Source: Tequatrovirus BCH953P4
Direction: 5' to 3' (one strand)
Sequence record: OZ035789.1
Length of the DNA stretch: 64,000 bases
The translations under genes were made by a program, and so were the position numbers. Each line of letters starts with the position of its first letter. Positions within the stretch are counted from its first letter, which is position 1. Positions 58,240 through 59,579 of this stretch are shown one piece after another. The notes under the pieces are model-generated. The model ran no database searches. It was not told where the DNA came from and saw only the letters and a list, made by a program, of their open reading frames with translations.

Positions 58240-59019
58240 TTAATTAAAAATATATACTTCATCAGTTCCATTCTTTTCTTTGGAATGATATATGTTAAAG
58301 ACGTATTTTTTATTAAGATGCTTAACATTATATTTTTTAGACCATTCTTTAAGAAGAGTGTTTTCCTTTCCGTGATGCTCTAAAACATTCGACAACCCAA
58401 ATTTTATTCCTCTATCATTTAAAGAGTCTAAAAGATTTAAAAGGTCTTTTTCTTCTTCTTCTGACCAAAATTTATTATAATCAGCAACTGTTATAAGATA
58501 CGGAGGGTCCACATATACAAAATCGCCGTCTAAAATTTTAACATCTTTAAAATGCAATGAACTAAAAATTATTTTATCACAATTTTGCTTAAAGTGATTA
58601 AAGCGTTTTTCACTATTTTTGTTTATAGTTCTTTTTCCAAACGGAGTAGTAAAATTTCCTTTATCGTTTATACGAATCATATTACTAAATCCGTGAAAAT
58701 GAAGAACATAAAGTAAAAGAGGATCTCTAGTTTTATTATAATCTTCACGTAATTTCAAAAACTCTTCTTTTGATGTTTTTGATAGTTTATATTGCTTTAT
58801 TACTTTTAAAACGTCATCCCATGATACATTAATAAGACGCTTATACATTTCAATAATTGGTTCTTGAATATCATTAGCCAATACAGGGCCATTGACGTTC
58901 AAAGACACTGATAAACCTCCACAAAATAAATCCACAAATCTGTCATATTTCGGAAAGTGAGATTTGAGTTCAGGTAATAATGATTGTTTATTACCTGTAT
59001 ACGCGATAGCTCCTAGCAT
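58240..59019 (-). CDS. dam: Dam DNA N6-adenine methyltransferase
   Basis: 259-aa ORF; DPPY catalytic motif ([10 protein letters not shown]); N-terminus [18 protein letters not shown] as T4 Dam. Confidence 0.95.
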
Positions 59020-59579
59020 TATATTCTCTCATTTATTGCAGCAAAAAACGAATTATATAATTCTTCATCATATGTATTTGATAGTAATACTAACACGTTT
59101 TGTGATTTAGCATATTCATTAAACCTTGCTTGGATAGTTGGATTATCAGTAAATGATTCTCTTTTTGTCCATTTATTACGTGGATAATATCCGCATGGCA
59201 AAAAATCTAATATCATCAATGACACAGGGTTTTCAGTTTTTGTGTATTCTTTTAATTTCTCTTTATCTTCTAAATATATTCCAACCGAATCAATAGCTGT
59301 ACCTCCACCAACTTGATGTTTAATTTCAATTATATGCTTTTTACCATTGCGAGAAATAACAATATCAAATCTTCTAGTACGCTTCTTAGTTATAAAATTC
59401 GAACAAAATAAATTATTTGATTTTTCAGTATCATCGGTTAAAACCATTTTTTCTTGATAACTAACTGAACAATCAGTGAAATATTCTTTTACTTTATTAA
59501 GTATGAAATTTTCAACCACGGCAGATATTTTATATGAATCTCCGTTTAAAGCCATTTCATGCACAATTTTATTAATCAT
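59019..59579 (-). CDS. PD-(D/E)xK nuclease-like protein translationally coupled to dam (186 aa)
   Basis: ORF track; RFDIVIS..(x10)..HIIEIKHQ fits D..(D/E)xK core; stop overlaps dam ATG; own early promoter; very AT-rich. Confidence 0.6.

Follow-up and report, generated by a model that had tools for sequence, protein, structure and literature searches.

A stretch of 64,000 nucleotides from Tequatrovirus BCH953P4 (sequence record OZ035789.1; hereafter the window) carries, directly 5' of the gene for the GATC methyltransferase Dam, a minus-strand open reading frame (ORF) of 186 codons at 59019-59579, here termed ORF186. On balance, we favour the interpretation that ORF186 encodes the endonuclease half of a Type II-like restriction-modification (R-M) cassette of T4-like phages, in which the phage Dam, forming N6-methyladenine (m6A) at GATC, would be the protecting methylase. 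The strongest evidence of our analysis is the comparative linkage of the ORF to dam: its distribution fits an R-M pair, because the putative nuclease gene was never found without the methylase gene, the methylase gene sometimes occurs alone, and the two move together as a unit. An R-M-like architecture had already been proposed by a first reading of the letters of the window and of a list of its ORFs (hereafter the original prediction), and this distribution bears it out; the ORF itself is present where that reading had placed it.

Linkage of ORF186 to dam and its repeated loss

In all 12 contexts examined, a D12 methylase gene lies directly downstream of the ORF and in the same orientation, and in 11 of them the two genes overlap or abut. 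The overlap amounts to 1 nt in the window and in MX01, G28, L003 and L008, to 4 nt in L007, 7 nt in Lion_ER11, 20 nt in L009 and 35 nt in L010, and the genes abut in L004; T2, with a 13-nt gap and no overlap, is the exception to the tight coupling that the original prediction had claimed and that this survey otherwise upholds. The pair is found between primase gene 61 and gene 56 (window, Dhakavirus MX01, L003 and L004), between denB and ndd (Klebsiella phage Lion_ER11, L015, PP738760, 1655-3006) and immediately upstream of rIIA (L009, 141-1599). The denB/ndd and rIIA regions also house other genes for host-DNA-directed nucleases and nucleoid disruption.

The distribution was assessed in a census of 508 phage records matching the region of the window. 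Both the ORF and dam are present in ~145-147 records (~29%), dam accompanied by an 87-nt remnant of the ORF in ~36 (~7%), including T4 and RB59, and neither gene in ~325 (~64%), for example RB68. Counted by gene, dam occurs in 182 records and the ORF in 147, at least 145 of the latter spanning both genes in one stretch, and in none of the 508 records was the ORF found without dam. Across the interval between dam and gene 61, the ORF is present in T2 and deleted in T4 apart from an 87-nt remnant, and in RB68 the whole cassette is absent, the block 58200-59667 (1.47 kb) being missing in its entirety with ~40 bp of unrelated sequence in its place. Together, the census and the three genomic locations show that the putative nuclease-methylase pair behaves as a unit in inheritance, loss and relocation. 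The dam gene of the window is orthologous to T4 dam (DNA identity of 90% over the aligned block that contains it), and it differs from the "orphan" Dam of T4 in having a putative nuclease partner, both here and in ~80% of dam-carrying relatives.

Within the window, the stop codon of ORF186 and the start codon of dam are joined as TAATG, with the single base at 59019 in common, where the original prediction had read an ATGA overlap. The neighbours of ORF186 are T4 genes in the order of T4 (sp, a 118-aa ORF, 61.1 and primase 61 on one side of ORF186, dam, 56 and soc on the other). The AT-richness noted at the outset was confirmed, with a GC content of 27.3% for ORF186 against 35.2% for the window, that of dam being 28.2%. 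As for the early promoter that ORF186 was thought to own, the GTTTAC/TATTAT match is indeed there (Table 1), and a generic promoter scan scored it as TTTACT, at a one-base offset, with a 17-nt spacer and an extended -10 TG; the same scan found no more promoter-like sites in the ORF186 region than in shuffles, and the match hence fits a promoter but is not significant. ORF186 and dam appear to be co-transcribed, with their reading frames joined.

Deletions from the pair have left recognizable scars. The segment missing from T4 measures exactly 548 bp and is flanked in the window by the two copies of the 8-bp direct repeat ATCACAAA, of which a single copy is left at the fusion; the T4 remnant comprises the final 87 nt of the ORF, joined to the start of dam and frameshifted by the loss of one base in a T-run. 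The T4 deletion also takes out the promoter-like site, which is kept in KarlGJung (Bas37), where a separate deletion between imperfect GATGATAT repeats removed the part of the ORF that encodes the candidate catalytic core (Table 1). In T2, the ORF has one T fewer in the T-run and ends with ...NSFLLQ* at 181 aa, 13 nt before dam, the gap being a consequence of this frameshift. These alignments show that the putative nuclease gene was lost independently at least twice by microhomology deletion with dam kept, once in the T4 type and once in the KarlGJung type. From the T4 remnant, the separate KarlGJung deletion and the T2 ORF, it follows that the ancestral state in this lineage comprised both the ORF and dam. 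Such asymmetric loss is to be expected of a nuclease that does harm in the absence of the methylase and a methylase that is harmless alone.

The description of the ORF as an insertion relative to T4 is therefore right about a difference of roughly 0.5 kb, which is real and measures 548 bp, and wrong about its polarity, T4 having undergone a deletion. A segment 5' of dam in T2 with no T4 counterpart, which the original prediction had invoked, corresponds to the ORF and has the size given there: the GenBank record of T2 dam, M22342 (1988), contains the ORF, unannotated, in agreement with a 536-bp insertion 5' of T2 dam that the 1988 paper on this gene reportedly described. Two other histories were considered and discarded. 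The ATCACAAA repeats could be taken for the target-site duplication of an inserted element, an idea at odds with the retention of the 3' end of the ORF in T4 and with the full-length ORFs in phages whose divergence is far greater than that of T4 from the window. A T4 deletion arising on a T2-like frameshifted background was dropped in view of the T4-type phages FN and Manna, whose remnant is unshifted. The length of the T-run alters both the C-terminus of ORF186 and its overlap with dam, and could form a slippage-prone switch of the nuclease or of its coupling to dam.

The ORF186 protein occurs in ~150 sequenced Tequatrovirus genomes, in many of them 100% identical; in a sample of Tequatrovirus, ~48 of 53 copies were full-length, the protein being 100% identical in most. 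More distant relatives have 186-190 aa at 42-64% identity, and two at 32-33% identity reach 225-227 aa. The ratio of nonsynonymous to synonymous substitution rates (dN/dS, Nei-Gojobori) was 0.05 against phage G28 (dS 0.14) and 0.10-0.20 among MX01, L003 and L008, values near, and slightly above, those of dam for the same phage pairs. These comparisons show ORF186 to be a real gene under purifying selection. A profile search of 1.84 billion proteins returned only 11 relatives, and this search combined with two word-indexed searches (5.8 billion proteins) delineated a small phage family of ~10 real members, P0016, P0008 and P0010 being excluded as a repeat artefact or chimeric fragments. In these searches, the family is known only from T4-like phages.

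Predicted fold and relation to known restriction enzymes

ORF186 is predicted to adopt a PD-(D/E)xK fold, biased towards small restriction enzymes. The AlphaFold2 model, computed with six sequences only as input, has a mean predicted local distance difference test (pLDDT) score of 80.3 and a predicted template modelling (pTM) score of 0.79; an independent model of the MX01 orthologue in BFVD superposes on it with a template modelling (TM) score of 0.92. The model shows the alpha-beta-beta-beta-alpha-beta core, in which E23 sits on the first long helix, the second core strand bears D72, and the third bears both E85 and K87. These four residues are invariant in the eight family members aligned (8/8), down to 32% identity. 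The motif that had drawn attention to the ORF reads RRFDIVIS...KHIIEIKHQ, with 5 residues (RNGKK) between RFDIVIS and HIIEIKHQ instead of the ten first counted, and 13 positions from D72 to E85. Its assignment to a PD-(D/E)xK core agrees with the predicted fold and with the invariance of the proposed D, E and K residues, and profile searches and structure prediction alike pointed to a restriction-endonuclease-like fold.

The best structural matches of the model are Type IIP restriction enzymes, and further matches include Can2, McrC, BstEII, DrdV, PfoI, PspGI, Bse634I, BsoBI, NgoMIV, Cfr10I, AgeI, SgrAI and EcoRI. MunI, which belongs with the MunI/EcoRI-like class of small dimeric Type IIP enzymes, has 200 aa and recognizes CAATTG; its identity with ORF186 is 12%, with no detectable sequence relationship. 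Since 186 aa falls within the range of complete Type IIP enzymes, ORF186 need not be a fragment. Searching all chains of the PDB with the family profile returned noise only, and the comparison with the MutH/Sau3AI family of GATC nicking enzymes found no specific sequence or structural similarity to MutH.

Among characterized families, the closest appears to be DpnII. Out of 24,736 Pfam families, DpnII (PF04556) was the best for ORF186, with an E-value of 0.0045 and 16.8 bits over residues 28-113 against positions 152-235 of the 278-position profile. Half of the family members matched it (4/8 at E <= 1), the best with an E-value of 8.3e-5, and the PADLOC profile REase_II aligned to residues 16-109 of ORF186 with an E-value of 9e-5; NCBIfam gave no match for ORF186. 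For direct comparison, a DpnII sequence served only as a probe; it scored 336 bits on PF04556 and was 99-100% identical to database proteins, one of them named DpnII of S. pneumoniae, and the DpnII family alignment was built from such database proteins. With hhalign, residues 11-97 of ORF186 aligned with DpnII 140-226 over 78 columns with a score of 34.35, compared with a mean of 14.7 (standard deviation 2.7, maximum 23.7) for 200 column shuffles and 12.8 for the reversed profile.

The likeness extends to the arrangement of the candidate catalytic residues. E23, D72 and E85 of ORF186 and E152, D201 and E214 of DpnII have the same spacings, 49 and 13 in both, and the two proteins have in common, in co-linear order, a helix with (V/M)EN, then RFDxVI, IE(I/V)x and G(G/S)G(T/S). 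The model of DpnII has a confident C-terminal domain whose secondary-structure elements are ordered as in ORF186, and a search of all viral structures in BFVD with this model ranked the ORF186 orthologue third (E-value 1.2e-3). The partner methylases also correspond, DpnM being Dam-like and the partner of ORF186 belonging to the same D12/Dam class. ORF186 is probably a distant relative of the catalytic domain of DpnII.

The proposed cassette and competing explanations

In the favoured R-M interpretation, an early transcript would carry ORF186 and dam. ORF186 would be a small Mg-dependent endonuclease, presumably active and probably a dimer like MunI, that recognizes the site protected by Dam, most simply GATC. 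It would cut at or around unmethylated GATC and be blocked by Dam methylation, so that Dam would shield the phage DNA, and DNA in the infected cell without GATC methylation would be cut. Candidate targets would be under-methylated co-infecting phages, including the ~64% of T-even relatives without dam, and incoming plasmids. In the "orphan" Dam of T4, only the M gene of the cassette would have survived. A precedent for a viral GATC R-M pair is found in the chlorovirus PBCV-1, with M.CviAI (A581R) and A579L (PMC7248222). As proposed here for ORF186 and dam, a lytic virus combines a GATC m6A methylase with a nuclease, but the host of PBCV-1 is a eukaryote whose DNA lacks GATC methylation and hence offers an obvious target.

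Several observations weigh against this interpretation, and the first group concerns DpnII. The score of ORF186 on PF04556 (16.8 bits) lies below the gathering cut-off of 23 bits, and hhalign assigns the alignment a probability of only 36-44%. At the position of K87, DpnII has N, giving ExN against the canonical ExK of ORF186, and at ~288 aa it includes an N-terminal helical domain of ~140 residues with no counterpart in the 186 aa of ORF186, whose alignments are confined to residues ~126/140-288 of DpnII. DpnII/MboI systems place the M gene first and have two methylases, as opposed to the order R then single M of the present cassette. With a subthreshold match, ExN against ExK and no N-terminal domain, GATC specificity cannot be read from homology; activity, site specificity and sensitivity to methylation are all properties that we infer. 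Nor did the exhaustive profile search of 1.84 billion representative proteins reveal any cellular restriction enzyme bridging to ORF186.

The second group concerns the target. The DNA of E. coli is already Dam-methylated. In addition, the glucosyl-hydroxymethylcytosine (glucosyl-hmC) DNA of T-even phages blocks most Type II enzymes (PMC7653180). On both counts, the natural target is the weakest point of the R-M interpretation. The genome composition offers no help here. GATC is by far the most depleted 4-bp palindrome of the window, with 65 occurrences observed vs 211 expected under a second-order model (observed-to-expected ratio 0.307), and the depletion is just as strong in RB68 (0.295), which lacks dam as well as the ORF. 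The depletion is thus lineage-wide and says nothing specific about the cassette, and it was rejected as specific evidence of a footprint of the nuclease; published work attributes it to the host mismatch-repair nuclease MutH, which would select against GATC.

In a more speculative version, which we hold to be rather unlikely, the three T-even states (nuclease and Dam, Dam only, neither) would form a killer/immune/sensitive polymorphism, with ORF186 adapted to cut unmethylated GATC containing glucosyl-hydroxymethylated C. If so, a phage with the cassette would destroy co-infecting Dam-less T-evens (~64% of those sequenced), T4-type phages would be immune free-riders, and the function of T-even Dam would be self-protection and immunity in phage-phage conflict, with restriction aimed at hypermodified DNA.

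Other functions can be imagined for ORF186. It might be a selfish, homing-type endonuclease whose cuts in the cassette-less allele, or in DNA close to it, would spread the cassette into co-infecting relatives through recombinational repair, with Dam as a passenger or as protection of the cut site. The seg and mob genes of T4 spread by such cutting and repair, and the patchy distribution of the cassette and its presence at several loci would suit this proposal. We nevertheless judge it unlikely: ORF186 lacks similarity to the GIY-YIG and HNH families of seg and mob (neither domain gave a Pfam or PHROG match), its best structural matches lie among Type IIP restriction enzymes, the strict coupling to a methylase over deep divergence is unlike homing genes, and the events observed were microhomology deletions, with no gains.

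A nuclease of the DpnI kind would do the reverse of what the R-M interpretation supposes, cutting the Dam-methylated cytosine DNA of the host or of competitors; glucosyl-hmC would render the phage DNA immune, and the phage Dam would raise the methylation of the targets. This seems distinctly improbable given that the model consists of a single nuclease domain, with no winged-helix or other methyl-reading domain, and that T-even phages are already equipped with EndoII and EndoIV to act on host DNA. Moreover, host Dam already supplies methylated targets and phage Dam would not be needed, yet the ORF is never seen without dam.

We give similarly little credence to a role without cleavage, in which ORF186 would be a DNA-binding partner or regulator of Dam, or a translated leader bringing ribosomes to dam. 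The conserved stop/start overlap would be in keeping with such a role, and inactive PD-(D/E)xK domains are known, but all four catalytic-type residues are invariant and purifying selection acts throughout the protein. In addition, dam persists after loss of the ORF in T4-type and KarlGJung-type phages, and the activity of T4 Dam is established; dam therefore does not need ORF186. Finally, a decaying relic without present function, as repeated loss and the frameshift hot spot near the 3' end (where T2, T4 and KarlGJung carry variants) might suggest, is very hard to reconcile with a dN/dS of 0.05-0.2, with ~90% of sampled copies intact (~48/53) and with a length steady at 186-190 aa down to ~42% identity.

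Returning to the R-M interpretation, it would trace the T-even Dam in a simple way to a mobile R-M cassette, of which it was the M gene. To our knowledge, some fifty years of study of T2/T4 Dam as an orphan enzyme have brought to light no clear benefit to the phage. The interpretation predicts that a nuclease directed at GATC and blocked by Dam is made early in infection. If ORF186 is indeed an active nuclease, the cassette would be a restriction system wielded by a virulent phage and not against one, with a bearing on the competition of co-infecting phages and hence on the design of phage cocktails, as many therapeutic Tequatrovirus isolates carry ORF186. An active enzyme might also be a compact GATC endonuclease that tolerates modified DNA.

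Annotation and neighbouring genes

Homologues of ORF186 are labelled "hypothetical protein" in nearly all records, and the corresponding PHROG 8706 is listed as "unknown function"; in the record of phage Shinka, the homologue is a "putative DpnII restriction endonuclease". The T2 record AP018813 (L013, 1515-2060) labels the ORF "head outer capsid protein" and dam "fokI modification methylase", almost certainly wrong annotation transfers, which have spread to other records ("fokIM"). One sentence of a paper from 2026 refers to a "restriction enzyme-like gene" next to a Dam-like gene in the phages Geo, EL and BGP (PMC13390438). The original prediction had called the ORF uncharacterised, and we found no functional study of the family in the searchable literature; the description needs amending insofar as the Shinka record and the 2026 paper mention it in passing. 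As far as we have found, no earlier description exists of the scar that the deletion left in T4, of the three states in which the phages occur, of the different loci to which the pair has moved, or of the selection acting on the ORF. As ORF186 falls below the Pfam threshold, reaches an hhalign probability of 36-44% and lacks the N-terminal domain, we did not file it as a member of the DpnII family; it is best filed as a new family of small PD-(D/E)xK endonucleases that are paired with Dam, in a Type II-like manner, in T4-like phages.

Table 1. Coordinates, in the window, of the cassette, the deletion breakpoints and nearby genes
Feature	Position	Strand	Description
ORF186	59019..59579	minus	186-aa putative PD-(D/E)xK restriction-endonuclease-like protein; candidate catalytic residues E23, D72, E85, K87
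dam	58240..59019	minus	D12-class GATC N6-adenine methyltransferase; Pfam PF02086, E-value 4e-51; orthologue of T4 dam
Promoter-like site, T4 early type	59605..59634	minus	GTTTAC (59634-59629), 18-nt spacer, TG-n-TATTAT (59610-59605)
Shine-Dalgarno GAGGA	59587..59591	minus	7 nt 5' of the ORF186 ATG; read from sequence
Whole cassette (promoter, ORF186 and dam)	58200..59667	minus	Absent as one block in ~64% of close relatives, e.g. RB68
ATCACAAA, 8-bp direct repeat, upstream copy	59647..59654	minus	Breakpoint of the 548-bp T4 deletion; window/T4 comparison
ATCACAAA, downstream copy	59099..59106	minus	Within ORF186, codons ~158-161; T4 keeps 87 nt 3' of it
KarlGJung (Bas37) deletion	~59218..59573	minus	Between imperfect GATGATAT repeats; codons ~3-121 including catalytic core gone, dam and promoter kept
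T6 run, indel hot spot	59043..59048	minus	5 T in T2 and in the T4 remnant, 8 T in KarlGJung
66-aa ORF	59679-59879	plus	Strong AGGAGG ribosome-binding site; very hydrophobic; PHROG 2024 (unknown function)
soc	57347-57592		
Gene 56	57661-58194		

The 66-aa ORF upstream of the cassette probably encodes a membrane protein, judging from its hydrophobicity. It converges on primase gene 61, overlapping the end of that gene by 4 nt, and contains a terminator-like hairpin on the minus strand at 59694-59713. As it occurs in all three cassette configurations, and also in T4, where it is unannotated in the RefSeq record, it was ruled out as a component of the cassette. Between 61.1 and sp, a 118-aa ORF (61073-61429, minus strand) occupies the place where T4 has 61.2 (208 aa, of unrelated length), and RB68 has both, making this a second presence/absence polymorphism of the early-gene cluster. 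The homing endonuclease gene segF, which in T4 separates soc from 56, is missing from the corresponding interval of the window (57593-57660), and likewise from T2, MX01 and RB68.

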